Assembly (NCBI GenBank): GCA_965219535.1
Contig: CBDCNV010000002.1
Coordinates: forward strand, 1,290,001 to 1,322,000
Reading direction: 5' to 3'
Length of the DNA: 32,000 bases
Source of the DNA: Opitutales bacterium
Lineage (GTDB): Bacteria; Verrucomicrobiota; Verrucomicrobiia; Opitutales; PNEW01
Part shown: piece after piece, positions 1-32,000 of the stretch
Position numbering within the stretch: the stretch's first letter is position 1
Layout of the letters: every line of letters begins with the position of its first letter
The notes under the pieces: model-generated
The model's database searches: none
What the model was told of the DNA's origin: nothing
The model's input: the letters and a program-made list of their open reading frames with translations, nothing else
Program-made: the position numbers and the translations under genes

Positions 1-1595
1 GCTTCAATCCCTCCCAGTGCCGTGTAAAAAGTGCTGAGTAGCCCCATGGACAGTATGCACACATAAATATTAATCCCCGTAATCGTGGAGAGAACAATTG
101 CTGGCAGGTACAAGATGAGGCTGATCCTAATCATTTGAAAGATGATAAACTGGAGGCTGCCAAATAAGCGGACTGCGACATTAAAGCGTAATTCCAGGTA
201 CTCATAGACGGTCGTAATGTTTAATCTTCGGAAAAAAGGCAGATAGAAATAGATAATAATTATCGGTACGATGAAGGCTCCAATTGTAGCGGGAAACATG
301 AACCAGTCCGTGGCATAAAGTAACGCTGGAGTGGCGATATAAGTCAGGGCACTGAGCCCGGTCCCCAGCATACTGATCGCCGCGGCCCACCAGGGAATAC
401 GGCGGCCAGCTAGAAAATAATCGTCGGTTCCCTTTTCTCGTCTGGAGAAATAAAGCCCCATAAAGACAAGGATCGACAGATAGAAAATAAGAAAAGTGTA
501 ATTAACGACACCGAAGGAAGCTTTTGCACCCGATTCATGCTTCATAAATTGAATTCTGGGTGTGTTTTCGCCGGAACTGAGCTCACCACTGACGAGCAGA
601 AATCCTCCCTTCCATGGCACAGCCTCGGCATTTGCCACCGCGCGGGGAATTTCTCCTTTGACGAGCCAGGTGTCAGTAATCGTGTGATAGGCGAGCAGAT
701 CGTGCGATTGTTTGAGTTTTTCATTTTCCCCAATATGTCTACCGCCAAAAATTATAATATGTGATTGGCCATAATTAATAACCGGAGCTGCAGTAATGGG
801 GTGAGGGGTGTCAGCGATCCTTTCCCATATTTTTTGTCGAAGTGAATAACGATAGCCGTCGGTCAGCGACTGTGTTTGAAGATCACCTTCCTCGTGCTGG
901 GTAATCCCTTCACCGCCTAAAAGATAAACATAACTCTTATCTCCCGTGTTTTGTCTGACCACTTTGGCATTTGTCCGGGCCGGACCATCCCAGGGGTCTA
1001 AACTATTCCACCCCGCCTCCAAATTAAGGAGATTGAGCGACCAGAATATTTTTGATAGCTCTGATTCTTCGGCTTCAACTTTTCCCCCTGCAACAAACAG
1101 CGTATCGCTGACAAGTGTGGCGTCGATGAATGAGACGGGATGTAGGAGAGGTGGCAGAGATTCCTGCTCTATCATCTGTGATTCGGTATTCCAGGTTAAT
1201 CGTGTCACCTGGTCTTGATTGCCATCTGCGTTTCTTCCACCAATCAGTATTAAACTGTTATCACTGATTACCGATGCACCATAAGCGAGTGGTGCCTTTA
1301 ATTTATATCCCTCTAGCCACTCATCCTGCTCATCATTGACGAGAACATAGATATCGTCGTACCAGGCAATTTTATCACTTTTCCATTTGGTGATATCAAA
1401 GGAGTCAGCGCCACCGGCGACAATCAGCGCGCCGTTGCTGACACCCGCGAATGCGCCACTCAAGCCAGATGGACGGGGCAGTTCGGGGAGTTCTTTCCAG
1501 GTGAAAGCTTCTTCCCTCTGGGACTCAACATTACTGCAACCACTAAAAAACAGGAGAGCCGCAATATAGGATGCAATGATCTGAGAACATTTCAT
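1..1595 (-). CDS. Fusion ORF (3' end outside window): lipoprotein-type signal peptide + Kelch-like beta-propeller (cyclically permuted NanM/YjhT-type mutarotase-like) domain (aa 1 to ~345), continuous in frame with a sodium:solute symporter (SSF) domain (from aa ~351)
   Basis: Absent from the ORF track because it runs off the left edge. ATG at 1595-1593. I read every in-frame minus-strand codon from 1595 to 1 and found no stop. N-terminus MKCSQIIASYIAALLFFSGCSN has a lipobox-like FSGC. SGAFAGVSNGALIVAGGADSF ... AVPWKGGFLLVSGELSSGENT resemble NanM-family blades. From the internal Met at 545: MKHESGAKASFGVVNYTFLIFYLSILVFMGLYFSRREKGTDDYFLAGRRIPWW, a canonical SSF N-terminus paralogous to 6049-7605. 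Confidence 0.8.
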   Translation of the reverse strand, partial: MKCSQIIASYIAALLFFSGCSNVESQREEAFTWKELPELPRPSGLSGAFAGVSNGALIVAGGADSFDITKWKSDKIAWYDDIYVLVNDEQDEWLEGYKLKAPLAYGASVISDNSLILIGGRNADGNQDQVTRLTWNTESQMIEQESLPPLLHPVSFIDATLVSDTLFVAGGKVEAEESELSKIFWSLNLLNLEAGWNSLDPWDGPARTNAKVVRQNTGDKSYVYLLGGEGITQHEEGDLQTQSLTDGYRYSLRQKIWERIADTPHPITAAPVINYGQSHIIIFGGRHIGENEKLKQSHDLLAYHTITDTWLVKGEIPRAVANAEAVPWKGGFLLVSGELSSGENTPRIQFMKHESGAKASFGVVNYTFLIFYLSILVFMGLYFSRREKGTDDYFLAGRRIPWWAAAISMLGTGLSALTYIATPALLYATDWFMFPATIGAFIVPIIIIYFYLPFFRRLNITTVYEYLELRFNVAVRLFGSLQFIIFQMIRISLILYLPAIVLSTITGINIYVCILSMGLLSTFYTALGGIE

Positions 1596-1610
1596 TTTAT
1601 AATTGTATAC

Positions 1611-1642
1611 GCGATTAAGCGTGAACGCGGGTATGCGGAATT
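1611..1642. repeat. 8-nt-period degenerate tandem array, AATGCG class (gcgattaa gcgtgaac gcgggtat gcggaatt)
   Basis: Four consecutive 8-nt units each starting GCG, lying 16 nt upstream (gene orientation) of start codon 1595. Confidence 0.5.
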
Positions 1643-1711
1643 AAGAGTAGAATGTCAAAAGACATTTCTATGACATTGTGCAGGTGAAACGCGGTCGACT
1701 CCGCCTCCACT

Positions 1712-1956
1712 CTTGTCATTGCGAGGGAGGTATTCAACCGATCGTGGCAATCCAGGCGAATAATCATTGTACTTACGAATACTTAGTCTACACTAAGATC
1801 TTTCCAATGAGGTTCATCTCCTCAATCAAGTTAATTGTTTAATTGAGAGTAAGCCCTAACATCCAGAGACCTGCATCACTCAACTGACATCCTCCTGGAA
1901 TGTAAGATGTCGCTACGCTCGGTAGCCGCGTCGCGTTGCTCCTCGCAATGACAAAC
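1712..1956. repeat. REP/MITE-like palindromic element, copy A (long or split form)
   Basis: Left arm cttgtcattgcgaggg (1712-1727) and right arm cctcgcaatgacaaac (1941-1956) are inverted repeats. The left half (..cgtggcaatccagg) resembles copy D. The right half (cctggaatgtaagatgtcgctacgctcggtagc..ctcgcaatgacaa) resembles the right half of copy B. Confidence 0.6.
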
Positions 1957-1984
1957 GAAGGGAATCGCTGGTGCGCGTTTTAAG

Positions 1985-2020
1985 TGTTAGGTGTTAAGCA
2001 ATTAACCTAACACCTAACAC
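1985..2020 (-). terminator. TAGGTGT-class hairpin downstream of the 3' end of gene 2053-4278
   Basis: gtgttaggtgttaag (1985-1999) pairs with cctaacacctaacac (2006-2020), 14 of 15 bp, loop caatta. It starts 33 nt after the stop codon in gene orientation. No clear U-tract. Confidence 0.4.
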
Positions 2021-2052
2021 CTAAAACTTAACACTGATCGCTAGATCACACC

Positions 2053-4278
2053 TCATTCAATGGTCAACTCTTCAACTGCTACCTCAATCGCATCGCCGTC
2101 TTCATTGGCGAAGGTGGCATCGATACTCAGGGTCGGTTGAGGGGTGTTGTCCGACTTGAAATTGTTCTGTGTGATCAGAGTATCGAATCCCGTTGTTGTC
2201 GATCCACTCTCAGCGACGACCACTGCGGCACCGTTCGTTTGCAAGAGGTCTCCACCCGTGATACGCAACCCGGGGTTGCCGGCTGGAACGGTGAAAGAGC
2301 CTGAGCCAAACAGTATGTGCGGTACTGCGTCGCCACTGGCATCGATGTCGCCAATCGTTAAGCGTACGCCGATCGGGACACCTCGCGCGTCGATACCGGT
2401 CTTGCCCGTACTTCCACTGAACGCGGTGTTCGACAACTGTACCCCTCCCAGTCCCGTAGAATTGACTACTTCCACAAGACTCACGTCCGCCTGGGCGTCA
2501 TAGACCTGTCCTTCGGGGAAGAGAGCCTGGTTAAAGGCGTTGATCCTACCCACGGTGAAGATACTGAAAAAGGTATTAGCGTCTGCTCCGTCGATGACCA
2601 CGCTCGGCTTGCCCGTCACGTACTCGACGGCCTGGTTGTAGCGTGGGGGAATGGCCGGGGGCAAGAAAGTGGCTGGATCGAGGGTTACGGTAAAGGTACC
2701 ATTACCTGAAAATTCAACCTGCACGATGTCCTCGTTTTCATCCATGAAGGAGACGCGGGTGATCTGTCCGGGTTTGGCCTGGAGTTGGACGGACTCTCCG
2801 GTGAGCAATATCTGATCGAAGACGTTACCGTTGGCATGTTGAATGTTTTCTCCAGCTATATCGCCCGAGCCGTCGAGGACGAGAGGGACGGAAGGTGCCG
2901 CTACCGTGACTACTGCGGTGTCGCTATCCGCGGTGCCCCCGGCGTTAGTAATCTGTACCCAGAAGCTTGTGCTCGCGGTGAGAGCGCCGGTGTCTAAGGT
3001 CCCGGTAGTCGCGCCGGCGACGGGACTGGCGGTGTCGCCGCTGTTGCCGGTAAACCACTGGTAAGTGAGATCGTCACCACTGGCGGTAACGGACAAGCTG
3101 GCTGAAGCGCCCGAAGCGACCTCCTGGCTCGCGGGCTGGGTAGTGATGGACGGGGCATCCGCGGGTGGGGGTCCTTCGGAGCCCGTGCCCGGTGCTCCGA
3201 TGGGCGTAAACCCAAAATCGTCGATCGTAGTACGACTGAAGTCAGGATTAATATCAGGATCATCATTAATAACTAGTTTGCCAATACCTCCCGGAGCTCC
3301 TAATTCATCCGCATTGATCGTTATAAAACGGGGTTTGAACAAGGGGTCGAGGAACCCTTCTAAATCCGTAAAGGTGGCGAGTAAGTTATCGTTTGTGTCG
3401 TAGACTTCAATTGAGCCGTCAGGATCGGTTTCACCTGCGGCAACCACATGCGCAGCAAAAGTATCTATTTCATAAGCCGGGGTTTCAAAGGTGACGGTAA
3501 AAGAGTCGCCATTAAAAACTCCGTAAGAATAAGGCCACGAACGAACATAGGCGAGATTACCTGAAGCTACAAAGATAATGAATCCTCCTTCTAAACTAAT
3601 ACTGTTGGGCGAGGTCCCGACGGTTAAAATTTCGTTCTGTCCCTGACCGGTGCCAAATTCTCTGAAAGTCGTGTAAACTGTATTGTTTGAAGGGAAATCC
3701 GTCAGGGTAAATCCCAGATCATCGAGCACAAATTTTCCTGTCACATTCAGCACCTTCATTTCGATTATGCCGTTAATGAAATTAAAATCGGTATCATCAA
3801 GAAAAACACCACTGTCGGCGACAAAGCTGTATAAGGTGGGATTGGCTCCTGGACTGATATTTGTCGGAAGTCCATCGATTCTGCCCCCATTGTCAGGTAT
3901 GACGACGACAACATCGTTGTTGCCTCCGGACTGGCCTAAATTAACTTCTCCTCTTATCTCCATTCTACCTCCGCCCGTTGTTTCACCCGCATAATATTGA
4001 AGAAATTGAATCCCCCTTGAGGATGAAATACGACCCTCCTGACCGGGTCCGAGGGTAATCGCTTTTGTTCCCGAATGCAAAAGCGCAGGATCCTCTAATG
4101 TTTCGACCGTGAATCCGGTCAGGGTGACCGTGTTTGGCTCCTGCCCTATGACGATGGTGCCTTCTCCGCTTACATCTTCAAAATCAGTGAATACTTCCAG
4201 GTCCTGTGGCAAGGCCATGAGAATGAAAGGGTAAGATACGATTAATATGAAGTGGGCGAACGATTTTTTGACTGACAT
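2053..4278 (-). CDS. Secreted or cell-surface protein of unknown function with a central Ig-like domain
   Basis: 741-aa ORF. Signal-like hydrophobic N-terminus (FAHFILIVSYPFILMA). APSITTQPASQEVASGASASLSVTASGDDLTYQWF...DTAVVTV is an Ig-like module of the type common in PVC surface proteins. No catalytic motif recognised. Confidence 0.75.
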   Translation of the reverse strand: MSVKKSFAHFILIVSYPFILMALPQDLEVFTDFEDVSGEGTIVIGQEPNTVTLTGFTVETLEDPALLHSGTKAITLGPGQEGRISSSRGIQFLQYYAGETTGGGRMEIRGEVNLGQSGGNNDVVVVIPDNGGRIDGLPTNISPGANPTLYSFVADSGVFLDDTDFNFINGIIEMKVLNVTGKFVLDDLGFTLTDFPSNNTVYTTFREFGTGQGQNEILTVGTSPNSISLEGGFIIFVASGNLAYVRSWPYSYGVFNGDSFTVTFETPAYEIDTFAAHVVAAGETDPDGSIEVYDTNDNLLATFTDLEGFLDPLFKPRFITINADELGAPGGIGKLVINDDPDINPDFSRTTIDDFGFTPIGAPGTGSEGPPPADAPSITTQPASQEVASGASASLSVTASGDDLTYQWFTGNSGDTASPVAGATTGTLDTGALTASTSFWVQITNAGGTADSDTAVVTVAAPSVPLVLDGSGDIAGENIQHANGNVFDQILLTGESVQLQAKPGQITRVSFMDENEDIVQVEFSGNGTFTVTLDPATFLPPAIPPRYNQAVEYVTGKPSVVIDGADANTFFSIFTVGRINAFNQALFPEGQVYDAQADVSLVEVVNSTGLGGVQLSNTAFSGSTGKTGIDARGVPIGVRLTIGDIDASGDAVPHILFGSGSFTVPAGNPGLRITGGDLLQTNGAAVVVAESGSTTTGFDTLITQNNFKSDNTPQPTLSIDATFANEDGDAIEVAVEELTIE

Positions 4279-4377
4279 GATTACACCTTTTTGTGAATGG
4301 ACTACGGAACGAAGAAAAGAACGGGATTACTTGAATATGAATGAACAATAAAAAAGTCAAAACGATTTAAAATAATT

Positions 4378-5979
4378 CTAATTATCGGCAGAAGGGGCCT
4401 TGGGGATAATCACACTCCCGTCGGGAAGGACAGCTCGACAGGAAAAAGTCCAAGCTCCCCAGGTCCATCCCATATCGGGATTATCCAAATTTACCAAGAG
4501 TATGTTTTTGCCCTTCTTGAGCTTCACCTCGACGGCTCTGTACTTGTAAGGCTGGTGACTACCGAGGTTTTGCACTTTGTTGTCATTAAGACGAATTTTC
4601 ATTTCGTCATCCCAGCTCAAGTGTAAGGTTGCTTTAGTATCCTTATTTACTTCGAGGGTTGTAACTGCCGATGCATTGGCCGGCCACGTCACATTAGAAA
4701 TTCTACTCTGCACATTGAAAACATGTGAAAAATCGATAAAACCATGAGTGGCCGTGTGGCGCAATCCCGGTTCGATCGCATTCGCTTTTTCCCCCAATAT
4801 CTCATCCCCTCGATACAAAGACCATGTACCATCATCGGCTGAAGCCAGTATCGCGTCTGGCCCCTCGGCCCCTACCTGTTTTAATAGATCGTACTTGCCC
4901 CGTTTAATTTCCCTTTCTTCGCGCCAGGGTGGATTCCCGTACTGGAGGTCCTGAGGTGAAACCATTTTGACGAAAGGCCGGTGGGGTTCGGTCTGATACC
5001 AGTAAGCGGTCATGCACATATCGTTCGAGTGACTGCCCCATCGAAAGTGAAGCGATTTTTCGAAAGGCACCAGATCGTGGACATAAAATTTGTATGCGCT
5101 GAGTTCGTGCCGGGCCAGGGCTGGCCCCACATCTTTATACTCGAGATAGGGGATGCCGGTGTAGAGGTGAGTATTCGGTATGTGTCGAACACCACCGAAA
5201 GCGGTGTCGAAAGTGTTTTCCCCTCCTGCTGCGCGAAGATAGTGGGGGACGATACCGTCTTCACCCGTGGCTTCACCGTCGATATAGAAATTTTCTGAGC
5301 CGGCATGCGACCAGCGCTGCTCATCGGAGCGCAAACGAACACCGAGAGAAAATCCCATAAGGTAACCGCGTCCCACGGCATCCATGACAAAAAAATCATC
5401 ACCCCAGGCAGGTGCCGGGTTCTCACGACGCCAAGAAGCGTGAAAACGCAGGTCCTCATCAAAGTCGTCAGTCAGATACTTGTGCCAATCCAGGGTGTAA
5501 ATAAACTTTGCGCTTTTTATGGCCTCCACCTCAACGCGGGCGGAGCGGGCAAAGGGCATAGGGAAGTAACAGGCGAGAGCCCCCATATCACTTACCGAAA
5601 GATAATAGCTGTTAATATTATAGTGGCTGACATTATAATGAACGCCAAACAAATCGGGAAGGGGGGCTTCCACGCTGGGTGACTCTTCGCCATCCCAATA
5701 AATGCGCACGATAAAATTACGGCTCCCTTCCAACACGCGAAACTGAGCTCTTCGATCATTACTGGTCATATAGATATGCCGGATACAACCCGGACCCTCC
5801 AGTTCGGCAATTACTCGTCGCTCACCCGCCTCCATGGGAAATTTATCAAGCACACGTTCGTAACGGTATTTCTCCGGCAAGTTCAGCTTGTCTTCGATCG
5901 TCGCGGCTGAACATTCACCCACTATCCGGAACAAGGCTAAGACAGAGAGAATGACAGACGTCAGGTAAATCTTTTTCAT
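4378..5979 (-). CDS. Secreted DUF2961-like (CAZy GH172-like) putative glycoside hydrolase with an extra C-terminal beta-sandwich-like domain
   Basis: 533-aa ORF. Signal peptide MKKIYLTSVILSVLALFRIVGECSA. Motifs ENFYIDGE, GGENTFDTAFGG and TAYWYQ match my memory of DUF2961. About 150 aa of C-terminal extension. Family call not verified by search. Confidence 0.6.
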   Translation of the reverse strand: MKKIYLTSVILSVLALFRIVGECSAATIEDKLNLPEKYRYERVLDKFPMEAGERRVIAELEGPGCIRHIYMTSNDRRAQFRVLEGSRNFIVRIYWDGEESPSVEAPLPDLFGVHYNVSHYNINSYYLSVSDMGALACYFPMPFARSARVEVEAIKSAKFIYTLDWHKYLTDDFDEDLRFHASWRRENPAPAWGDDFFVMDAVGRGYLMGFSLGVRLRSDEQRWSHAGSENFYIDGEATGEDGIVPHYLRAAGGENTFDTAFGGVRHIPNTHLYTGIPYLEYKDVGPALARHELSAYKFYVHDLVPFEKSLHFRWGSHSNDMCMTAYWYQTEPHRPFVKMVSPQDLQYGNPPWREEREIKRGKYDLLKQVGAEGPDAILASADDGTWSLYRGDEILGEKANAIEPGLRHTATHGFIDFSHVFNVQSRISNVTWPANASAVTTLEVNKDTKATLHLSWDDEMKIRLNDNKVQNLGSHQPYKYRAVEVKLKKGKNILLVNLDNPDMGWTWGAWTFSCRAVLPDGSVIIPKAPSADN

Positions 5980-5988
5980 ATTTTAATA

Positions 5989-6020
5989 GTCAAAAAGTCA
6001 AAAGGTCAAAAAGTCAAAAG
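5989..6020 (-). promoter_or_regulatory. Leader array (CTTTTGAC-class, 8-nt period, 4 units) upstream of start 5979
   Basis: gtcaaaaa gtcaaaag gtcaaaaa gtcaaaag on the + strand. The array ends 9 nt (tattaaaat in gene orientation) before the ATG. No SD-like purine run. Confidence 0.7.
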
Positions 6021-6048: not shown

Positions 6049-7605
6049 TCATTGATCACTGTTAACTGCCTTCCGACGGGAGTTTAGAATATCCCAAAAA
6101 GTAAGATTTCTTGAATCGGGTTTTGGACCGCCGCAGAGTGCGCTCGCCACTAATCCGACGAAGACTAAAACAAGATGGTTGAAAACGCCAATAATGTAGG
6201 GATTCAAGGTGTAATTAAAGCGTCCCAGATTAAGTAAGGGTGTATTTGACCCTGGAAGATTAACTCCGGTTACAGTTGCCCAGCCGGTAAAAAGAAAACA
6301 AAAAATAATTCCAATATATGCACCCCTTGAAGTCGTCCAGCGAAAGAGGAATCCAAGCGCGAAGAGGCCGAGGATTCCCCCGGTTACGATTGAGGCAACG
6401 GTAATAGATAATTCAATAACGGATCGAATACCGATCCATTGCTGAGCGATAAAGATTGAGGATGCTCCCAGTATCGCGACAACGATCTTTCCCACGATTA
6501 ACTGATGCCTGTCATTTGCGTCTGGTAAAATACGTACATAGAAGTCTTTAACCATGACGGTTGCGAGCGAGTTTAATTCGGAGTCCAAAGAAGACATGGC
6601 GGCACCAATCAGCGCCGCGAGTAAAATTCCGATCACGGCCGCTGGTAATTGGGTTTTGATAAAATAAGGCATGATGAAGTCCTTGGATTCGAGCACTTCG
6701 GTCGGTAGTTGCTCGAGTGACAATTCATAAAACGCCCACAACAAAGCGCCGACGATGGAAAATAAAATCCAGACCGGAACGCACGCTGAAGCTCCGATAT
6801 AAGCGCCCTGTGCCGCTTCCCGATCCGAGCGAGCGAGGAGAAAACGCTGTACATTACTTTGATCACAGGCCAAATATTGGATCGTGAAAAAAGTCCCACC
6901 AATGACGTAGAACCATTGATTATGTTCATACCAATCGAAGTTCCAGTTACCCATCGCAAATTTTCCTCCCTCCCACGCCTTGGAGATTACCACGCTTGCA
7001 CCTTCGTTCGGAGTGAAGAGTAATACAAATAAACAAATCAGGCCGCCGATTACGAGTAGGGTGCCTTGTATTACATCGGTCCACACGACCGCTTCAATCC
7101 CGCCGATCATCGTGTAAATTACAGTCACCGCGCCCAGGATGAGGATTACCCACCACACATCCCAGCCACTCAAATAACCGACGGCAATCGCTAAAAAATA
7201 AAAGGTGACACTGACGTCGATAACATGACTGACGATGAACGCCGCCGCCCCGTATGCGCGCGCGGGATAACCAAACCGTTTTTCCAAATATCCATAGGCT
7301 GTCATGCGCACCGTTCGGCGATAGAAAGCAACGAGGTAATAAGAAATGAAAATCATGACTAGCGGCCAGACAAACTGCCGGGGCAATGACCACATATTAG
7401 TTTTATAAACTTCACCGGGGAGTCCGATAAAGGTGGCACTGCTGATAACCGTGCCCATAATTGAAAAACCAACCACCCACCCCGGTAAATTGCGGCCAGC
7501 GAGAAAATAGTCCTCGGTCGATTTCTGCCGGCGCGAAAAATACAATCCCAGCGTCCCCAGGATGCAGAGATATATGACAATAACCGTTATTTCGATAATG
7601 CCCAA
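6049..7605 (-). CDS. Sodium:solute symporter family (SSF/SSS) transporter
   Basis: 518-aa ORF with many hydrophobic segments. LYFSRRQKSTEDYFLAGRNLPGWVVGFSIMGT is a typical SSF N-terminus. TTG start at 7605 is forced by an in-frame TAA three codons upstream. Confidence 0.9.
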   Translation of the reverse strand: MGIIEITVIVIYLCILGTLGLYFSRRQKSTEDYFLAGRNLPGWVVGFSIMGTVISSATFIGLPGEVYKTNMWSLPRQFVWPLVMIFISYYLVAFYRRTVRMTAYGYLEKRFGYPARAYGAAAFIVSHVIDVSVTFYFLAIAVGYLSGWDVWWVILILGAVTVIYTMIGGIEAVVWTDVIQGTLLVIGGLICLFVLLFTPNEGASVVISKAWEGGKFAMGNWNFDWYEHNQWFYVIGGTFFTIQYLACDQSNVQRFLLARSDREAAQGAYIGASACVPVWILFSIVGALLWAFYELSLEQLPTEVLESKDFIMPYFIKTQLPAAVIGILLAALIGAAMSSLDSELNSLATVMVKDFYVRILPDANDRHQLIVGKIVVAILGASSIFIAQQWIGIRSVIELSITVASIVTGGILGLFALGFLFRWTTSRGAYIGIIFCFLFTGWATVTGVNLPGSNTPLLNLGRFNYTLNPYIIGVFNHLVLVFVGLVASALCGGPKPDSRNLTFWDILNSRRKAVNSDQ

Positions 7606-7614
7606 GGTGTATTA

Positions 7615-7646
7615 GTCAAAAGGTCAAAAGGTCAAAAAGTCAAAAG
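7615..7646 (-). promoter_or_regulatory. Leader array (CTTTTGAC-class, 8-nt period, 4 units) upstream of start 7605
   Basis: GTC unit starts at 7615, 7623, 7631 and 7639. 9-nt spacer (taatacacc) to the TTG start. Confidence 0.7.
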
Positions 7647-7648
7647 GG

Positions 7649-7704: not shown

Positions 7705-7726
7705 CAGGTATGTCCTGCATCCTCAT

Positions 7727-7887: not shown

Positions 7888-7904
7888 TAAGAAATCAATC
7901 CAAA

Positions 7905-7952: not shown

Positions 7953-7953
7953 T

Positions 7954-23476: not shown

Positions 23477-24481
23477 CTAAATCTTCTTTATCGCTTCATT
23501 TCGACGGCTCAGCATTTGTTTCTCAAAACTTTGAGGATATCGCTCGGGAAGGTTGGAGATTGCGTTCAGGCGCTGAAGTACACTTTCATCCAGTTGCCAG
23601 CCAACGGCGCCAAGATTTTTTTCTAACTGTGCTACGGTTCGGGGGCCCACAATTGAGGAGGTAATTGCAGGTTGATCAAGTGCCCAACGTAGTGCGACTT
23701 GATCCGCGCTTCGCCCCAACTCATTTGAAACTTCAAGCAAAACGTTAAGTATCTTATCGGCGTGCACTGAAAAATAATCTTTAGGTAAATTCCGACCACT
23801 TTCCGATTCGACACCCGCGTCAAGATCTCCCGGCTTATATTTGCCCGTCAAAAAACCCCCGGCAAGCGGGCTCCAAATCACCACTCCCAAATCGTGGTAC
23901 TGGCAAAGGGGAATCAATTCCAGTTCTATGTCTCTAACGACAAGGCTGTACTGGGGTTGATAGCATTCAAAACGATTAAGGTCATGGGCGTCACTTATAC
24001 CCAGGGCGGTTGCTAAACGCCATGCTTCATAGTTGCTGCAGGCCAGGTAGCGTACTTTCCCCTCGTGAACCAGATCATCCAAAGCATAAAGCATCTCTTC
24101 AAGCGGAGTTTGAACGTCTACGTGATGGATAAAATAAATATCTATATGATCCGTTTGCAGACGCTTGAGACTGGCTTCAATCGCGCGCATGATATAGACA
24201 CGCGACATTCCGGAATCGTTAGGCCCCGATCCCATGGGGTTAAAAAATTTTGTCGCAAGAATGATTTCCTCTCGGCGATCTTTAAGTGCTCTCCCTAAAA
24301 TCTTTTCAGATTCTGCATTCGCGTATGCGTCGGCGGTATCGATAAAATTAATACCGGCCTCAAAACTCATATTGAGAATTCTGTTCGCTTCCGCTTCATC
24401 GGTCGTGCCTCCAAACAACATCGTGCCGAGGCATAGCTCTGAAACTTTAAGTCCCGTCCGTCCCATTCTGCGATATTTCAT
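23477..24481 (-). CDS. Aldo/keto reductase (AKR) family oxidoreductase
   Basis: The ORF-track TTG 24496 lies inside the repeat array. ATG 24481 gives MKYRRMGRTGLKVSELCLGTMLFGG, the canonical AKR N-terminus. Confidence 0.88.
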   Translation of the reverse strand: MKYRRMGRTGLKVSELCLGTMLFGGTTDEAEANRILNMSFEAGINFIDTADAYANAESEKILGRALKDRREEIILATKFFNPMGSGPNDSGMSRVYIMRAIEASLKRLQTDHIDIYFIHHVDVQTPLEEMLYALDDLVHEGKVRYLACSNYEAWRLATALGISDAHDLNRFECYQPQYSLVVRDIELELIPLCQYHDLGVVIWSPLAGGFLTGKYKPGDLDAGVESESGRNLPKDYFSVHADKILNVLLEVSNELGRSADQVALRWALDQPAITSSIVGPRTVAQLEKNLGAVGWQLDESVLQRLNAISNLPERYPQSFEKQMLSRRNEAIKKI

Positions 24482-24491
24482 AGGGTGATTA

Positions 24492-24524
24492 GTCAAAAGG
24501 TCAAAAGGTCAAAAAGTCAAAAAG
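24492..24524 (-). promoter_or_regulatory. Leader array (CTTTTGAC class, 8-nt period, 4 units) upstream of start 24481
   Basis: GTC starts at 24492, 24500, 24508 and 24516. 10-nt spacer taatcaccct to the ATG. Confidence 0.75.
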
Positions 24525-24572
24525 GATATGTGTAAATGTGTACATGCGTGTATGTGAGGATGCAGAAATCAT
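24525..24572. repeat. 8-nt-period ATGYG-class array (6 units)
   Basis: gatatgtg taaatgtg tacatgcg tgtatgtg aggatgca gaaatcat. Homologous unit-by-unit to 25905-25952 and 7649-7704. Confidence 0.6.
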
Positions 24573-24590: not shown

Positions 24591-24625
24591 TGCATCCTGA
24601 ATCTTGCATCCTGCATCCTGCATAA
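24591..24625. repeat. 7-nt-period array, TGCATCC class (5 units)
   Basis: tgcatcc tgaatct tgcatcc tgcatcc tgcataa. Confidence 0.65.
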
Positions 24626-24665: not shown

Positions 24666-25862
24666 TTATTCAGCTTGATAATTATAGGGCGACAGCTGTT
24701 CTTCGGTAATTTGCACACCGAAGCCAGGTCCGTCAGAAGGTATCATTTTGCCATCTTTGGGCGTTGCAATCCCGGGTAGCTGTTCTGCTTTTTGGGGCGA
24801 TTCACCGGGTGGTGTCGCGACAAAGCATTCCGCCCATGGGATGGCGGGCATGGCATAGCAGGCGTGCTGGCCATAAGGTGTACTTCCACCGCAGTGGGGG
24901 ATAACCGAGATTCCCGCCGCTTCAGCGATCGCACAGATCTTTGTGATCGCCGTAAGTCCTCCCACCCAGTGAATATCCGGCTGGAATATGTCCACCAGGT
25001 GGCGGCTGGCAGCGTGTTGGAAAGGCACAGAAGTGTACCAATGCTCACCGGTACTCAGCGTCTGCCAGGGAACACGCTGACGTAGTTGGGCATGGGCATC
25101 GAAATCTTCAGAGCGCAGTGTTTCTTCCATCCACTTAAGTTTGTATGGCCGCAACGCTTCTGCCAGGCGCACGGCGTATTCTACGTCGAAGGCCATCCAG
25201 CAGTCTAACATTAACTCTACATCATCACCCACCAGTTCACGATTCCTCGCTACAAAATCCACGTTCTTCTTGAGACCGTCCAAACCATCGGCGGGGCCGT
25301 AGGGGCAGGGTAGTTTGGTAGCCTTGAAACCGAGTTCCATGTACCAATCGGTATCCCCGCCGGTGGAGTAGCAGAACAATTCATCTCGCGCCGGGCCGCC
25401 CAGCAATTCGTAAACCGGTCGATCCATTAATTTTCCCTTCAGATCCCACAGGGCCAGATCAATAGCGCTCACGGCGTAGGAGTGGAGCCCCGTCGCACCA
25501 TAAGGCGCGCCCATGCGCACCATCATATCATAGCATTTTTCAGTTGCGGTGCAGTTTTCACCCACAAGACGCGGCCCGAGGTAGTCATCGATTATTGCGG
25601 CTACGGGGCGACCGTGATTGGCGACGGAAAACCCCCAGGTTCCATCTTCGGCTTCGACCACACAGCCGAAATTCTTCCAAGTCGGATACCATGAAGGGCG
25701 GAACGCCGCGTAACGAGGGTAGCGTGTCACGGGGTTGGCGACGGGACCGCTTTCAATCCATGAAGGACGACGCGCAGTCTTGTACTTGACGCTCGAGGAG
25801 CTCCCTTGGTTACTGGTTTCCGGGAAACTCACATTGACGGCGCGGATGGATTTAATTTTCAT
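24666..25862 (-). CDS. Enolase-superfamily L-rhamnonate-dehydratase-like (RhamD subgroup) sugar-acid dehydratase
   Basis: 398-aa ORF. IDLALWDLKGK, ELMLDCWMAFDV, YKLKWMEE, STGEHW, QPDIHWVGGLT and IPHCGGS parallel E. coli RhmD (LMLDCWM, LKWIEE, SGEHH, QPDVGWCGGLT, VPHGSS) from memory. Confidence 0.85.
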   Translation of the reverse strand: MKIKSIRAVNVSFPETSNQGSSSSVKYKTARRPSWIESGPVANPVTRYPRYAAFRPSWYPTWKNFGCVVEAEDGTWGFSVANHGRPVAAIIDDYLGPRLVGENCTATEKCYDMMVRMGAPYGATGLHSYAVSAIDLALWDLKGKLMDRPVYELLGGPARDELFCYSTGGDTDWYMELGFKATKLPCPYGPADGLDGLKKNVDFVARNRELVGDDVELMLDCWMAFDVEYAVRLAEALRPYKLKWMEETLRSEDFDAHAQLRQRVPWQTLSTGEHWYTSVPFQHAASRHLVDIFQPDIHWVGGLTAITKICAIAEAAGISVIPHCGGSTPYGQHACYAMPAIPWAECFVATPPGESPQKAEQLPGIATPKDGKMIPSDGPGFGVQITEEQLSPYNYQAE

Positions 25863-25871: not shown

Positions 25872-25903
25872 GTCAAAAAGTCAAAAGGTCAAAAAGTCAA
25901 AAG
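25872..25903 (-). promoter_or_regulatory. Leader array (CTTTTGAC class, 8-nt period, 4 units) upstream of start 25862
   Basis: GTC starts at 25872, 25880, 25888 and 25896. 9-nt spacer tatctaccc to the ATG. Confidence 0.75.
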
Positions 25904-25904: not shown

Positions 25905-25952
25905 GTTATGTGTAAATGAGTGCATGTGTGAATGCGAGGAGGCGAAATCGCA
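25905..25952. repeat. 8-nt-period ATGYG-class array (6 units)
   Basis: gttatgtg taaatgag tgcatgtg tgaatgcg aggaggcg aaatcgca. Confidence 0.6.
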
Positions 25953-27096: not shown

Positions 27097-27224
27097 CTCC
27101 CGTTTTCTTTTAGCGGTATTTCGCCAGGCATAAAGACAAAAAATTGTGCTCTAAGCGAATGGGTGCAATCGATTGTTACTTATTTTATCTCGCAACATCA
27201 ATTCGGCTTATTACACTGTTACTC

Positions 27225-28586
27225 ATGCAAAGAACAATAAAGCCCTCCTTGTCTTATCGAACTTATTCAACATTAGTCTTAGTGTGTGCGTTCTCACTCT
27301 GCCACGCCGATGATTGGCCGCGTTGGCTGGGACCCGAGGGAGATTCGATTTGGCGTGAATCGGGTATCCTGACGGAGATTCCTGCGGGCGGATTGAAAAA
27401 TAATTGGTCGCATCCTGTTGGCTTGGGTTACGCTGGTCCAGCGGTAGCAAATGGTAAGGTGTATGTCATGGATTATGTCAAAACATCTGGCGAAATCAGG
27501 AATCAAGCCAGTTGGAAAGACGAATTGCGCGGTAAAGAGCGCATCCTCTGTCTATCGGTAGAAACGGGAGAGCTCATCTGGAAACATGAATATGATCGGG
27601 CCTATTTTTTATCTTATCCCGCGGGACCACGCTGCACGCCAACTGTGGCGGATGGCAAAGTGTACACCTTGGGAACAGAGGGCGATTTACTATGCCTCGA
27701 TGCTGAAACCGGTGAGAAATACTGGTCGAAATCCTTTAACGAATCTTACGGCACAACAACACCGCTTTGGGGTTACGCGGCGCACCCGCTGGTGGTTGGC
27801 AATCAACTCTTCTGCATTGTTGGCGGTGAAGGGAGCGTCGTCGTTGCGTTTAATAAGGATACAGGTAAAGAGCAATGGCGCGCATTGTCCGCAGCCGATA
27901 GGGGATATTGTCCACCCTCTATGATCAAATCTGGAGGAAAACAACAATTGCTGATCTGGCACGGTGAATCGTTAAACAGCCTTAATCCTGTAAGTGGTGA
28001 GGTCTACTGGACTAACGCCATTAAACCCAGTTACGGCCTGACCGTGGCAGCACCGAGGCTTCAGGGTTCACTGCTCTTTGTTACCGGTATGAGCAGCACC
28101 AGCGCGCTGCTTAAACTGAACGATGAAAAACCTGGATTCGAGACCCTGTGGAAAGGGACAAGTACCAGTTCCGTTCACTGCAATAACAGTACACCAGTCA
28201 TGACTGAAACGATGATCTTTGGCTGTGATGTCGAATCGAGCGCGCTTATAGGTGTGCGTGTTGCTGACGGTGAACGCACGTGGCAAACGACATCCCCTAC
28301 GGTTGGCGATCTAAAAAAAGCGCGTCACGGTACCGCGTTTATTGTGCGGCATCTCAACTCAGACCGTTACTTCCTCTTCAGCGAGACAGGAGATTTGATT
28401 TTGGCTGAGATGACTGCGAGTGAGTATCGCGAAATCGGTAGACAACGGGTATTAGAACCAACCAATAACACGGGAGGTCGATCAGTTGTCTGGAGCCATC
28501 CCGCATTCGCATCGAAAAGTATGTTCGCCCGCAACGACAAAGAAATTGTGCGTGTAGACCTGGCAGCGAAGGCATATGATAAATAA
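27225..28586 (+). CDS. Secreted PQQ-like/BamB-like beta-propeller repeat protein
   Basis: ORF track starts at 27144. ATG 27225 gives the signal peptide MQRTIKPSLSYRTYSTLVLVCAFSLCHA followed by DDWPRWLGPEGDS, typical of this PVC-abundant family. Repeated GKVY/GDL.C.D..TGE..W blades. Confidence 0.75.
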   Translation: MQRTIKPSLSYRTYSTLVLVCAFSLCHADDWPRWLGPEGDSIWRESGILTEIPAGGLKNNWSHPVGLGYAGPAVANGKVYVMDYVKTSGEIRNQASWKDELRGKERILCLSVETGELIWKHEYDRAYFLSYPAGPRCTPTVADGKVYTLGTEGDLLCLDAETGEKYWSKSFNESYGTTTPLWGYAAHPLVVGNQLFCIVGGEGSVVVAFNKDTGKEQWRALSAADRGYCPPSMIKSGGKQQLLIWHGESLNSLNPVSGEVYWTNAIKPSYGLTVAAPRLQGSLLFVTGMSSTSALLKLNDEKPGFETLWKGTSTSSVHCNNSTPVMTETMIFGCDVESSALIGVRVADGERTWQTTSPTVGDLKKARHGTAFIVRHLNSDRYFLFSETGDLILAEMTASEYREIGRQRVLEPTNNTGGRSVVWSHPAFASKSMFARNDKEIVRVDLAAKAYDK

Positions 28587-28596
28587 GCTTATATAT

Positions 28597-28632
28597 GTCG
28601 AAAGTCGAAAGTCGAAGGTCGAAAGTCAAAAG
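28597..28632 (+). repeat. Trailer array (GTCGAAA x4 + GTCAAAAG, 7-nt period) 10 nt after stop 28586
   Basis: GTC starts at 28597, 28604, 28611, 28618 and 28625. Confidence 0.7.
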
Positions 28633-28695
28633 AGGGGGGTAAGAAGAATCCGCTGGGATTCTCATGTATCTTGCTTACTGAAACCTGTATCCACT

Positions 28696-28769
28696 CTTGT
28701 CATTGCGAAAGAGGCATGGCCGACTGCGCTCGGTTGCCACGGCTGTTAATCAGCCTCGCGATGACAAAT
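28696..28769. repeat. REP/MITE-like palindromic element, copy C (short, 74 bp)
   Basis: cttgtcattgcgaaag (28696-28711) ... cctcgcgatgacaaat (28754-28769). The interior ggcatggccgactgcgctcggttgccacggctg is shared with copy D. Confidence 0.7.
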
Positions 28770-28815
28770 ATAATAATTTTAAAATCTCGTCCCTCCAGAA
28801 GATTATCTGGTTTGT

Positions 28816-28842
28816 CCTCTTGACTTTATGACTATCTGACAC
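28816..28842 (+). promoter_or_regulatory. Degenerate leader-type array (CTTGAC TTTATGAC TATCTGAC) upstream of ATG 28856
   Basis: Three GAC-terminated units. The last GAC ends 15 nt before the ATG. Confidence 0.4.
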
Positions 28843-28855
28843 TGGCTATTTATTT

Positions 28856-30535: not shown

Positions 30536-30617
30536 AGAAAAGTATATTTACTCCTAACGACATGGATATTATCACGTAGATCTGGCATCGAATGCATGTA
30601 GGCAGTGAGATTTTTAT

Positions 30618-30646
30618 GTCGAAAGTCGAAGGTCGAAAGTCAAAAG
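30618..30646 (+). repeat. Trailer array (GTCGAAA GTCGAAG GTCGAAA GTCAAAAG)
   Basis: GTC starts at 30618, 30625, 30632 and 30639. Homologous to 28597-28632. Confidence 0.7.
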
Positions 30647-30679
30647 AGGGAGTGTAAGTAAAAACCGATAGGATTTTCT

Positions 30680-30707
30680 TGCATCTTGTATTCTGAATCC
30701 TGCATCC
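30680..30707. repeat. 7-nt-period TGCATCC-class array (4 units) abutting REP copy D
   Basis: tgcatct tgtattc tgaatcc tgcatcc. Confidence 0.5.
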
Positions 30708-30710
30708 TCT

Positions 30711-30821
30711 CTTGTCATTGCGAAGGAGGAGTAGCCGACTGCGGCAATCCAGGGGCTGACGATATGCGTACGAAATTCCTCTGGATCGCCACGGCTGTAA
30801 ATCAGCCTCGCGATGACAAAT
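30711..30821. repeat. REP/MITE-like palindromic element, copy D (111 bp)
   Basis: cttgtcattgcgaagg (30711-30726) ... cctcgcgatgacaaat (30806-30821). It has an inner inverted pair ggcaatccagggg / cctctggatcgcc. Confidence 0.7.
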
Positions 30822-30858
30822 ATAATAATACAACAATACGTCCAAACGAAACGCCAAA

Positions 30859-32000
30859 TTGGTAAATCCTAAAACATACGAAATAGCCGTCCTCAAGGGA
30901 GACGGTATCGGTCTCGAAGTCGTCGATGAAGCCTTGCGAGTACTGGAGGCGGTTGCAGTAGTGGAAGAGATACGATTTAACTTTAATGATTATCCCTCGG
31001 GTGCTGACTGCTACCTGGCACAGGGCACGCCGTTGCCGGATGATACCCTGGTCGCCTGTCGGCAAGCGGATGCGGTGCTGCTCGGCGCAATGGGAAACCC
31101 GGAGATCCGTTGGCCCGACGGTACGGAGATGCGACCCCAGGTGGATCTGCGCTTCAAGCTCGATCTCTATGCCGGGGTGCGTCCAATCTATCTATACGCT
31201 TCACACCATACACCGCTCAAAGGCTACGAAGCAGGGGATATCGATTTTGTCCTCCTCCGTGAAAATGTTGAAGGGTTGTTTGCGTCGATGGACTCCGGCA
31301 TCGAGCTGCGGGGTGAGGTGGCGACTGATACGATGGTTATTACGAAGGATGGCACGGAACGCATTGTCGCCTATGCATTCCAACTTGCACGAGAGCGACA
31401 GTTGGCAAGGGGATCAAGTGGTATAACTGAATTTGTCCCCAAAGTTACCTGTGTCGACAAGGCCAACATTTTTCGATCGATGGCATTCTTTCGTCGCGTT
31501 TATGATGAAGTGGCTGAGAACTATAATGAAGTTGGCCGGGAGTACGCCTACGTCGACGCGATGGCCCAATATCTGGTTCAGCGGCCCGAAGAATATGACG
31601 TCATGGTCATGGAGAATATGTACGGTGATATACTTTCGGATCTTGCCGCAGGTATTGTCGGCGGACTGGGGATGACGCCATCGGGAGATATAGGTAAGGA
31701 TGCGGCGGTCTTTCAGCCGTCACATGGAACCGCACCCGACATTGCCGGTAAGGGTATCGCTAACCCCGTTGCCACGATTCTCTCAGCGGGTATGATGATG
31801 AAATGGCTGGGCAGTTGCTTTAATGACGAAGCGACAACGCGTGCCAGCGAATGCATCGAGCAAGCAGTTAAAAGCGTGTTGGCTGATCCGACTAATGGGA
31901 CACCGGATCTTGGTGGCGATATGACCACCTCACAATTCGGAACCAAAATCGCAGAAGCGATTTTTGAGTCAAAAAGTCAAAAGGTCAAAAAGTCAAAATG
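30859..32000 (+). CDS. Isocitrate/isopropylmalate dehydrogenase family enzyme (tartrate/D-malate dehydrogenase-like); 3' end not reached in window
   Basis: Not in the ORF track because there is no stop before the window end. TTG 30859 is the first start after an in-frame TAA. Translation ...YEIAVLKGDGIGLEVV..., LLRENVEGLF, MENMYGDILSDLAAGIVGGLGM, SHGTAPDIAGKGIANP. The last 11 codons (ESKSQKVKKSK) are encoded by a GTCAAAAG array. Confidence 0.85.
   Translation, partial: MVNPKTYEIAVLKGDGIGLEVVDEALRVLEAVAVVEEIRFNFNDYPSGADCYLAQGTPLPDDTLVACRQADAVLLGAMGNPEIRWPDGTEMRPQVDLRFKLDLYAGVRPIYLYASHHTPLKGYEAGDIDFVLLRENVEGLFASMDSGIELRGEVATDTMVITKDGTERIVAYAFQLARERQLARGSSGITEFVPKVTCVDKANIFRSMAFFRRVYDEVAENYNEVGREYAYVDAMAQYLVQRPEEYDVMVMENMYGDILSDLAAGIVGGLGMTPSGDIGKDAAVFQPSHGTAPDIAGKGIANPVATILSAGMMMKWLGSCFNDEATTRASECIEQAVKSVLADPTNGTPDLGGDMTTSQFGTKIAEAIFESKSQKVKKSK
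31968..32000 (+). repeat. Trailer-orientation array (GTCAAAAR, 8-nt period, at least 4 units) overlapping the 3' end of 30859-32000
   Basis: GTC starts at 31968, 31976, 31984 and 31992. The array continues to the window edge. Confidence 0.7.

Follow-up and report, generated by a model that had tools for sequence, protein, structure and literature searches.

The 32,000-nt stretch of DNA analysed here (the window; contig CBDCNV010000002.1 of assembly GCA_965219535.1, positions 1,290,001 to 1,322,000) comes from an uncultured marine clade of Opitutales with a guanine-plus-cytosine (GC) content of ~49%, and its spacers between genes are rich in head-to-tail arrays of 7- or 8-nt units. Our results indicate that these arrays are very probably heptamer-type long simple-sequence repeats (LSSRs): they consist of tandem units within the 5–11-nt range beyond chance, lie at many dispersed, mainly non-coding loci, and vary in unit number. 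The phenomenon itself is familiar from short tandemly repeated repetitive (STRR) sequences and from the GGGNATC and TAACTGA repeats; here it takes a multi-class, unusually rich form specific to the lineage, and it is not a new kind of system. The earlier note on this DNA had found no described repeat system to match them; this view has to be given up, as heptamer-type LSSRs are on record (GGGNATC, PMC4692102; TAACTGA, PMC4679880). Three properties go beyond that first reading and are new: a modal copy number of 4, abutment to the ends of open reading frames (ORFs), and a strand polarity that is independent of the array class.

All 37 arrays listed in the earlier note exist, and the unit given for each was seen at every coordinate when the sequence was printed in units of the period. 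Tandem Repeats Finder returned 34 rows for the window, all but one with a period of 7, 8, 14 or 16, and these rows coincide with or adjoin the listed arrays. In agreement with this, base identity at lags 7 and 8 was 0.34 in spacers versus 0.25 in coding DNA, with harmonics of the spacer autocorrelation at lags 14, 16, 21 and 24. The GTCAAAAR, GTCGAAR, CTGAACC, TTAGGTG and TGCATCC arrays are clean (lag identity 0.7–1.0 over 4 units); degenerate arrays (0.46–0.67) stand at several WAATGCGN and GATTGCR sites and, for YTTCGAC, at 7954 and 10729. Under a strict threshold, by which identity across 3 units had to reach 85%, arrays covered 15.9% of the 4.08 kb of spacer DNA versus 0.09% of the coding DNA of the window, an enrichment of ~180-fold. 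At this threshold, dinucleotide shuffles of the spacers had a mean of 1 base covered, and periods 5, 6, 9, 10 and 11 gave zero cover in the window. Looser thresholds yielded a cover of 22–42% in spacers, 0.2–1.4% in coding DNA and less than 0.7% in shuffles. The claim that most non-coding DNA is built from arrays is thus somewhat overstated: they make up about a quarter to two fifths of the spacer bases, and the remaining spacer DNA consists of cores resembling miniature inverted-repeat transposable elements (MITEs), small hairpins and other dispersed modules. At least one array was found in 18 of the 23 spacers. Those without arrays are 4279–4377, 13529–13672, 15374–15576, 18914–18972 and 27097–27143, that is, the four regions already described as array-free and one more (13529–13672). 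A lack of arrays is not a trait of divergent spacers, since the divergent spacer 7606–8014 is full of them. The listed arrays at 9011, 22360, 24492 and 31968 overlap the ends of the longest ORFs.

The genes of the window are related to sugar-acid and sulfated-glycan catabolism (UxuA-like, enolase superfamily, TauD, PhyH, GHL10, DUF2961 and SSF transporter). Among the matches listed, the nearest genome is OY829953.1 (annotated as 'MAG: Opitutales bacterium', a complete chromosome; MAG, metagenome-assembled genome), which is ~93% identical and syntenic. The same array classes occur in the syntenic marine metagenome contigs L001, L002–L004 and L111 (UxuA identity of 92%, 86% and 73%, respectively); exact-protein look-ups of the window's UxuA and P0004 gave no match. 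Copies per genome and taxonomic range of the GTCAAAAR arrays are lower bounds throughout. In OY829953.1, no fewer than 40 separate 8-kb blocks carry such arrays, distributed from 1.86 to 4.46 Mb; a second Opitutales MAG has at least 6 8-kb blocks with an exact GTCAAAAR x3. Because the arrays are spread over OY829953.1, the second MAG and four related metagenome contigs, they are not the debris of one island. In contrast, spacer array cover is 0.0–0.1% in the remoter relatives L112 and L113 (UxuA 65–66% identical, GC 61–62%), which therefore serve as a negative control of the array-detection method. The clade-wide counts below refer to an Opitutales set of 346 kb of clade DNA, 17.7% of it intergenic, unless another sample is named. 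Genes in this set were called by a codon-usage score trained on the clade's long ORFs, which recovers the Pfam-supported genes of the window. Of 196 arrays with period 7 or 8 in the set, 183 are intergenic.

The copy number of the arrays is narrowly distributed. Its mode is 4 in every class, a value found in 89 of the 183 arrays, and the 94 strict matches of GTCAAAAR comprise 20 arrays of 2 units, 26 of 3, 46 of 4 and 2 of 5. Moreover, the arrays lie against ORF ends. At the start side, the last GAC of the array stands 6–11 nt before an in-frame ATG in 24 of 35 GTCAAAAR cases, with a mode of 9, and the linker between array and ATG mostly opens with TA and has no Shine-Dalgarno (SD) motif. At the stop side, the GTCAAAAR array begins 0–7 nt past the stop codon in 18 of 30 cases; in four of the stop-side cases a TAG stop codon is itself made by the TA|G junction with the array, and in the remaining ones a small hairpin spanning the stop lies between ORF and array. 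The flanks of the GTCAAAAR arrays are also biased, with TA preceding 52% of them on the outer side and G following 93% on the inner side.

The third property is polarity. The sense strand reads YTTTTGAC by starts in 45 of 49 cases and GTCAAAAR by stops in 29 of 31, and this opposite reading indicates that the rule is tied to the ORF boundary and not to the direction of transcription. Considering all classes, 119 arrays lie no more than 30 nt from an ORF end, and in 114 of them G exceeds C on the strand that leaves the ORF. The bias persists when the GTCAAAAR class is left out (69 vs 12, p = 7e-11) and weakens with distance, from 114:5 within 30 nt to 21:11 beyond 60 nt. All 37 arrays of the window conform. 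Independent gene calls gave 22 vs 3. Likewise, in ~40 of the 45 spacers with two or more arrays a G-rich array comes first and a C-rich one second on the plus strand, even where the two sides of the spacer carry different classes. By the same method, GTCAAAAR arrays in other phyla had no polarity (29 vs 20); hence the rule is neither an artefact nor intrinsic to the motif. An artefact of the ORF caller is ruled out by this result together with the independent calls. The general composition of leaders is also rejected as a cause, since array-free leaders of the clade are A-rich and not T-rich, and the GC skew that remains after masking the arrays is small (0.045 at starts, 0.12 at stops). These leaders are G-poor as well, as in Bacteroidetes. 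Altogether, the shared periods of 7 and 8 nt, the modal 4 units, the abutment and the single polarity bear out the suggestion of a common generating process or constraint.

Two ideas about the placement were discarded. Pairing between 5' and 3' arrays, either as a hairpin across the spacer or by circularisation of the mRNA, does not fit, as only 5 of ~63 spacers have arrays at both edges; genes with a start array that also have a stop array numbered 6, with 4.5 expected. A role as three-frame stop 'fences', with the TGA of YTTTTGAC or CTGAACC falling in all frames, is not general, as neither strand of GTCGAAR or TGCATCC holds a stop codon. The individual arrays of the window are as follows (the strand is that of the G-rich reading; G-C is the excess of G over C):

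1611–1642, plus strand: NNAATGCG-type 8-nt array (gcgattaa gcgtgaac gcgggtat gcggaatt), G-C = +7, at the left edge of its spacer by the start of the minus-strand ORF 3–1595.
1980–2034 (arms 1980–2000 and 2005–2034), no strand assigned: TTAGGTG/CACCTAA inverted heptamer pair, predicted 23-bp hairpin (-33.5 kcal/mol, z = -7.6), by the stop of ORF 2053–4278.
5989–6020, plus strand: GTCAAAAR x4, 9 nt from the ATG of the minus-strand ORF 4378–5979, whose sense strand reads YTTTTGAC.
7615–7646, plus strand: GTCAAAAR x4, where the minus-strand ORF 6049–7605 begins.
7649–7696, plus strand: NNAATGCG x6, carrying on the 8-nt period of the GTCAAAAR array 7615–7646, G-C = +8.
7905–7952, minus strand: CGCATNN x6, the NNAATGCG class on the opposite strand, in the right half of the spacer, G-C = -4.
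7954–7981, minus strand: degenerate YTTCGAC/TTTGAC heptamers, upstream of ORF 8015–8893.
8896–8943, plus strand: NNAATGCG-type 8-nt array directly past the stop of ORF 8015–8893, G-C = +10.
8971–9045, minus strand: CGCATTN x5 followed by YTTTGAC/YTTCGAC x5, running into the next ORF.
10659–10688, plus strand: TTAGGTG-type x4, past the stop of ORF 8976–10640, a single arm and unfolded.
10729–10756, minus strand: degenerate YTTCGAC-type heptamers, upstream of ORF 10767–12356.
12378–12444, no strand assigned: TTAGGTG x4/CACCTAA x4 inverted pair, predicted hairpin of ~27 bp (-42 kcal/mol, z = -10.2), past the stop of ORF 10767–12356 and preceded by a small CGCGTGAAA hairpin.
14428–14451, plus strand: GTCAAAAR x3, 20 nt past the stop of ORF 13673–14407, with a small hairpin between.
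16680–16743, plus strand: GGAAAACC/CCAGAAGA-type 8-nt array, past the stop of ORF 15577–16674, 7 units (56 nt) longer in OY829953.1.
16796–16827, minus strand: YTTTTGAC x4, 9 nt ahead of the HpcH-aldolase ATG, kept in OY829953.1.
17613–17647, plus strand: GATTGCC/GATTGCR heptamers, 3 nt past the stop of ORF 16834–17610.
17708–17739, minus strand: ATTTTGAC x4, preceding the enolase-superfamily ORF; OY829953.1 and L001 also have K8-type arrays here.
19835–19882, plus strand: NNAATGCG-type x6, past the stop of the SDR ORF 18973–19824, G-C = +12.
19925–19966, minus strand: CTGAACC x6 as read on the plus strand, ending 4 nt before the ATG of the UxuA-like ORF 19970–21109.
21111–21166, plus strand: GATTGCR/GAATGCG heptamers x8, immediately past the stop of ORF 19970–21109, G-C = +9.
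21226–21282, minus strand: CTGAACC x8 with 100% matches, preceding the second UxuA-like ORF, x5 in L001 and replaced in OY829953.1.
22353–22387, plus strand: GAATGCG/GATTGCG heptamers overlapping the final codons of the UxuA-like ORF 21316–22386.
22447–22474, minus strand: CCTTCGA-type heptamers, upstream of the PhyH ORF at 22519.
23446–23473, minus strand: YTTCGAC x4, 1 nt from the stop of the minus-strand ORF 23477–24496, the entire block absent in OY829953.1.
24492–24523, plus strand: GTCAAAAR x4, 10 nt from the aldo-keto reductase ATG, kept in OY829953.1, L002 and L111.
24525–24564, plus strand: NNAATGYG x5, absent in OY829953.1.
24591–24625, minus strand: TGCATCC x5 as read on the plus strand, located 42 nt from the stop codon of ORF 24666–25862 in the spacer's right half.
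25872–25903, plus strand: GTCAAAAR x4, 9 nt from the ATG of ORF 24666–25862, kept in OY829953.1.
25905–25952, plus strand: NNAATGNG-type x6, continuing the 8-nt period of the GTCAAAAR array 25872–25903.
28597–28631, plus strand: GTCGAAR x4 plus GTCAAAA, 10 nt past the PQQ-propeller stop, at the left end of a 269-nt composite spacer.
28817–28840, minus strand: degenerate NTNTTGAC x3 (ctcttgac tttatgac tatctgac), 15 nt before the ATG of the GHL10 ORF at 28856, read from the sequence.
30618–30645, plus strand: GTCGAAR x3 plus GTCAAAA, within the duplicate of segment 28514–28728.
30680–30707, minus strand: TGCATCY-type heptamers x4.
31968–31999, plus strand: GTCAAAAR x4, in the 3'-terminal part of the Iso_dh-like ORF that starts at 30859 and reads through the array.

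Several of these arrays bear on gene boundaries. The array 8971–9045 leads into the next ORF, whose true start is accordingly placed at ~9051 and not at 8976. More generally, the longest-ORF starts at 8976–9050, 17735 and 24479–24496 are TTG codons within TTTTGAC units, and the true starts are the ATGs ~9–10 nt past the arrays. At the other end of genes, the heptamers 22353–22387 overlap the end of ORF 21316–22386 and so encode its C-terminus, and the GTCAAAAR array 31968–31999, which has no stop in any frame in this orientation, is expected to be translated as a Lys/Ser/Gln-rich C-terminal tail. An Iso_dh-like ORF of contig L001 likewise crosses a GTCAAAAR x4 array (20590–20621), with a stop directly after. 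Automatic annotation of such genomes can thus be expected to over-extend N-termini, with TTGs inside arrays taken as starts, and ORF callers are also misled at 3' ends, where arrays are read through as C-terminal tails.

The arrays turn over rapidly between relatives. Comparing the same gene boundaries in five genomes, we found arrays gained, lost, resized and switched in class, with the polarity retained. The GGAAAACC array differs by exactly 7 units in the alignment of the window with OY829953.1, and CTGAACC is present in 8 copies in the window versus 5 in L001. Of the window and OY829953.1, only the window has the YTTCGAC block at 23446, the NNAATGYG block at 24525 is lacking in OY829953.1, and the 269-nt composite spacer 28587–28855 corresponds to just 54 nt in OY829953.1 and L002. 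Past the stop at 14407, a hairpin and GTCAAAAR x3 in the window are matched by NNAATGCG arrays in two other genomes, OY829953.1 included. On the other hand, OY829953.1 retains the GTCAAAAR x4 arrays that lie by gene starts at 16796, 24492 and 25872. The idea that the classes form a combinatorial, gene-specific code finds no support in this comparison: orthologous boundaries switch class or lose the array in close relatives in which the genes are unchanged, and such turnover argues against a code of that kind. Altogether, the turnover has the appearance, on the sequence evidence, of a mosaic, recombining repeat population with slippage.

Composite spacers also recur at dispersed sites, as 28587–28855 matches 30536–30858 and L072 at 75–84%. 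Comparison of 28514–28728 with 30537–30743 revealed that the last ~73 nt of the PQQ-propeller ORF are duplicated together with the composite spacer, at ~75% identity. The duplicate sits on the far side of GHL10, and the gene order around GHL10 differs in L001, which suggests that recombination at repeat-rich spacers moved this gene. The arrays are likely breakpoints of gene shuffling in polysaccharide-utilisation islands. The centre of array-flanked spacers is occupied by a MITE-like element with perfect 12–14-nt inverted termini (TTGTCATTGCGAGG / CCTCGCAATGACAA), found at 1713–1954 and 7727–7887 of the window; the latter copy has an inner palindrome of 35–50 nt (GCTACCGAGCGCAGCGACATCTTCC...). 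Related or truncated copies lie near 28697–28775 and 30712–30828, and also in L001, L048, L061, L082, L095 and L096. Other dispersed modules include GGTGGA(A/G)CG(C/G)GCTGTCCCTAGCGCG, which forms an insertion of OY829953.1 in the spacer orthologous to 15374–15576 and recurs in many spacers (L022, L047, L048, L049, L055, L063; L002 8753–9036). This module holds GGAAC, ~16 nt and CGT, and resembles a promoter for an extracytoplasmic-function (ECF) sigma factor. In addition, a hairpin module, CTGGAGGGACGCGCTCCGTCGCGTCC, is recurrent, and the module AACTTGTCACGCCATAGCC(T)YGGCGACGGCGG is common to unrelated spacers (window 14470–14500; L002 6545–6591 and 14560–14620).

At the RNA level, GUCAAAAR/YUUUUGAC is predicted to be unstructured, and the inverted TTAGGTG/CACCTAA pairs are predicted to form hairpins of 23–27 bp (z = -7.6 and -10.2). 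A search of the whole window with the Rfam 15 covariance models gave no match at E ≤ 1. The clade barely uses SD sequences: strict motifs (GGAG or GAGG) precede just 9% of the array-free starts and none of the 60 array-led ones. Known signals do not account for the arrays either. Matches to the sigma-70 consensus were as frequent as expected from shuffles (21 vs 21.1 and 17 vs 18.4), and the only good-looking promoter, at 22464–22492, arises where the last CCTTCGA-type unit of the array 22447–22474 yields TTGACA, which together with a TATGAT box scores 11/12 as sigma-70-like. Matches to intrinsic terminators (21 vs 17.4 and 12 vs 14.3 expected from shuffles) led us to reject that reading as well. 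A canonical bidirectional intrinsic terminator (AAAAAAACCCGCGGG caac GCCCGCGGGTTTTTTT) does occur at L025 of OY829953.1 (~4780–4940), and past it come GTCAAAAR x3, an AT-rich core of 70 nt and YTTTTGAC x3. The arrays are not simple-sequence repeats (SSRs) for phase variation, as they flank ordinary catabolic genes, GTCAAAAR copies are held at 3–4, and sigma-70-like matches are no commoner than in shuffles. Nor do they form a CRISPR (clustered regularly interspaced short palindromic repeats) array, with its repeats of 23–47 nt and unique spacers, since the units are 7–8 nt long, contiguous and without spacers.

Multi-class arrays of 7–8-nt units are found across phyla. The exact GTCAAAAR x3 pattern matched more than 100 8-kb blocks across the genome contigs searched, including, among the matches listed, MAGs of Bacteroidales, Prevotella, Phycisphaerae, Planctomycetaceae, Saprospiraceae, Holophagae, Acidobacteriota and cyanobacteria. 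As regards possible phages of the host, six unrelated viral contigs were matched, none of them similar to the Opitutales clade. In other phyla, GTCAAAAR arrays are often longer, with 6 to 30 or more units, and 22 of 60 form chains with arrays built from different units of 6–9 nt. In such chains of 7–8-nt arrays the unit drifts along the chain, as in L053, L068 and L078 (Phycisphaerae MAG PL23b), L008, L011, L079 and L080 (Bacteroidales MAG Horse_feces141) and L097 (Saprospiraceae). Two examples are GCCGAAAC to GTCAAAAA to GGCAAAAC to GGCGACAC, and GTTCAGAT to GTCAAAAR to GCTAATG.

To explain these observations, we tentatively propose a model that combines slippage birth, block recombination and selection at gene ends, and to which, taken as a whole, we give somewhat less than an even chance. 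Replication slippage would create and resize units, and recombination among near-identical copies would move, swap and replace blocks of ~30 nt (~4 units) between spacers, giving rise to mosaics. Near gene ends, an array would be retained only if its G-poor, pyrimidine-rich and unstructured strand enters the ORF. At gene starts, this would leave a tract of ~30 nt at roughly -10 to -40 devoid of SD motifs, AUG and GUG, a would-be docking site for the 30S subunit and protein S1 on mRNAs without SD sequences. Start-side arrays would then most likely act as generic leader modules, either standby or insulating, and the inverted TTAGGTG pairs past stops, as judged from their modelled folding, may be trailers with terminator or RNA-stabilising hairpins. 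A function of the arrays as leaders and trailers is in itself doubtful, if possible.

Several points weigh against this model. The presence of the arrays in mRNA and their effect on translation are predictions from sequence, and at L025 the GTCAAAAR array lies past a terminator and so probably outside the upstream transcript. A translation role covers the start-side arrays only, and the weak point is the mirror rule at stops, whose benefit is not evident. In addition, the strand of GTCAAAAR that enters the ORF contains UUG, so avoidance of start codons is an incomplete explanation, and the biased flanks of these arrays (TA 52%, G 93%) suggest a copied module rather than slippage in situ. Finally, the OY829953.1 sample was picked for blocks holding GTCAAAAR arrays, so that array densities there are biased.

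Could the arrays be neutral and functionless, left behind as the polymerase slips at 7–8-nt units, with placement and polarity reflecting only tolerance or mutational bias? The fast gain, loss, class switch and unit-number change among close relatives would fit this explanation, as would the related arrays of highly variable length in many phyla and the surveys that, as summarised in PMC4679880, rank heptanucleotides as the most abundant long SSRs and suggest slippage. We nonetheless consider it unlikely. The copy number is narrow (3–4, with a maximum of 5 in 94 GTCAAAAR arrays, versus 6 to 30 or more elsewhere), the spacing to the ATG is tight, and the polarity amounts to 96% at starts and stops, yet is missing for the same motif in other phyla (29 vs 20). 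Moreover, some start-side arrays are kept in four genomes while the adjacent spacer turns over. If, instead, the arrays were arms of foldback or MITE-like elements, whose terminal inverted repeats would be sub-repeated as GTCAAAAR, then NNAATGCG, then GGATGCA around a core, one would expect spacers packed with copies, some whole, some nested and some half decayed, and polarity would simply be the inward reading from the element end. Several palindromic spacers in which the classes keep a fixed order on either side of a core that has inverted termini of 14 nt, TTGTCATTGCGAGG (7606–8014), the TA ahead of 52% of GTCAAAAR blocks, the dispersed composite copies (28587–28855 vs 30536–30858 and L072, 75–84%) and the 269-nt composite where relatives have 54 nt all speak for such elements. 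However, GTCAAAAR-family arrays stand at both edges in just 5 of ~63 array-bearing spacers, and the left and right classes are often different and non-complementary, yet obey the polarity. Relatives appear to differ by replacements that start exactly at the stop codon, the comparison with relatives revealed no target-site duplication or clean empty site, and no transposase with such ends was found in the 346 kb. The diverse patterns at the eighth position argue against a single master, and a mobile element leaves the fixed spacing of ~9 nt to the ATG unexplained. An origin from such elements is therefore distinctly unlikely.

Protein binding offers another route. Some proteins recognise repeats of this size, as the omega repressor binds 7-bp heptads and ParG binds 8-bp boxes, and arrays of ~4 units could be operator-like sites for proteins that polymerise on 7–8-nt repeats, one per class, in a combinatorial cis-code. 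The fixed number of units, the combination of distinct classes within spacers and the presence of CTGAACC ahead of both UxuA paralogues in the window and in L001 are in line with operators. Against them, the class shifts or vanishes at orthologous boundaries where the genes are 85–93% identical, stop codons are as frequent a site as starts, and no candidate binding protein was identified; the single polarity of all classes indicates a property of composition and not eight specific readers. We regard operators as improbable. The same dependence on composition could also reflect loading of Rho. The main feature of Rho-utilisation (rut) sites is an excess of C over G, and in this case any RNA entering an ORF, sense or antisense, would carry an unstructured tract with more C than G, so that untranslated incoming transcription is terminated, and the G-rich RNA leaving the ORF would resist Rho. 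Alone among the RNA-level ideas, it covers starts and stops in a symmetric way; it agrees with C exceeding G on the into-ORF strand in all classes at both ends, and with the predicted lack of structure in GTCAAAAR-class RNA. Nevertheless, GTCAAAAR has just 1–1.5 C per 8 nt. Cyanobacteria, to our knowledge, have no Rho. The same polarity is reported for one of them, Nostoc (PMC4692102), and Rho loading is in our judgement very improbable. A dedicated, conserved machinery could stand behind the class-independent rules in place of slippage plus selection; this might add G-rich repeats from a template onto DNA ends where spacers are broken or resected, with telomere-like polarity and the two sides extended independently, or read the arrays as a gene-boundary mark through a universal factor. 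Such a machinery seems quite improbable to us, a shade more so than operators. The combination of slippage, block recombination and selection at gene ends thus remains our preferred, though tentative, reading.

Among known repeat systems, two families of mobile or palindromic elements share part of these features. In foldback transposons and MITEs, arms of short tandem sub-repeats surround a core, and copies are dispersed. The sub-repeated arms, the dispersed copies and the presence or absence among relatives are common to them and the window; however, most window arrays are single-armed, the arms are often of different classes, and no target duplications were seen. Bacterial interspersed mosaic elements (BIMEs) are built from imperfect palindromes of ~35 nt, and repetitive extragenic palindromes (REPs) are mobilised by REP-associated tyrosine transposases (RAYTs). 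As in these enterobacterial elements, the spacers of the window are intergenic motif mosaics with alternating orientation, often past stops and within operons, but neither such palindromic modules nor RAYT mobilisation was found here. The 16-mer GTCAAAAAGTCAAAAG did not occur in any paper of the literature library searched.

The closest relatives are heptameric repeats. The oldest example, known since 1990, is that of the STRR sequences, several families of tandem heptanucleotides in the non-coding DNA of heterocystous cyanobacteria, with CCCCAGT, TTGGTCA and CAACAGT as the units of STRR1–3. Like them, the window arrays are several tandem families dispersed in the non-coding DNA of one genome. 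They differ from STRR and other LSSRs in unit sequence and phylum, in that 8-nt units are here as common as 7-nt ones, and in being short (~4 units) and chained across classes in a fixed polarity. In a survey of LSSRs, heptanucleotides were the commonest long SSRs, and slippage was suggested as the cause (Mrazek et al., 2007, as summarised in PMC4679880). The TAACTGA heptamers of marine Beggiatoaceae, cyanobacteria and some Bacteroidetes come in 2–6 copies, mostly intergenic, a few nucleotides upstream of starts, in one orientation and in spacers poor in ribosome-binding sites; a translational role via S1, Csp or CsrA was proposed and left untested (MacGregor, 2015, PMC4679880). The start-side arrays described here likewise end shortly before the start codon, in one orientation and without SD motif. 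In contrast, TAACTGA is a single unit sequence of other taxa for which no mirror-image stop-side set has been described, and it was not among the Tandem Repeats Finder consensus units of the window.

The most instructive comparison is that with GGGAATC in Xanthomonas and GGGGA(C/T)T in Nostoc, dispersed heptamers that are ~90% intergenic (Rehm et al., 2015, PMC4692102). According to that study, these repeats lie antisense within 50 bp upstream of an ORF or sense within 50 bp past its stop, whatever the orientation of the ORF, sometimes overlap the stop, form convergent pairs, and vary in length and sequence between related strains. Their preference for four units was ascribed to the formation of G-quadruplexes, and their function was left open. 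This placement rule was published in 2015, and the G-quadruplex was the leading idea for the four units. The window arrays are alike in the four-unit preference, the G-rich strand directed away from the ORF, the overlaps with stops, the convergent pairs, the strain variation and the lack of a tie to gene function. On the other hand, GGGNATC repeats have one class per genome and are under-represented between divergent genes, whereas in the window lineage no fewer than 8 classes occur, with periods of 7 and of 8 nt, and there is no such deficit. More importantly, GGGNATC repeats carry GGG or GGGG tracts, while the units of the window have isolated G or at most GG: GTCAAAAR, GTCGAAR, NNAATGCG, GATTGCG, GGATGCA, GGTTCAG, TTAGGTG and GGAAAACC are all without GGG. 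They cannot form quadruplexes, and hence quadruplexes cannot explain the rule of four units and polarity here. What this verrucomicrobial lineage adds is at least eight classes, two periods, and arrays in a quarter to two fifths of the spacer DNA. It is a natural counter-example, in which eight unrelated units without quadruplex potential follow the same four-unit, abutment and strand rules. This removes the published rationale and indicates a general cause of another kind. The questions that it raises for all of these repeats are what measures ~30 nt, and what tells the strand entering an ORF from the strand leaving it at both ends of a gene.

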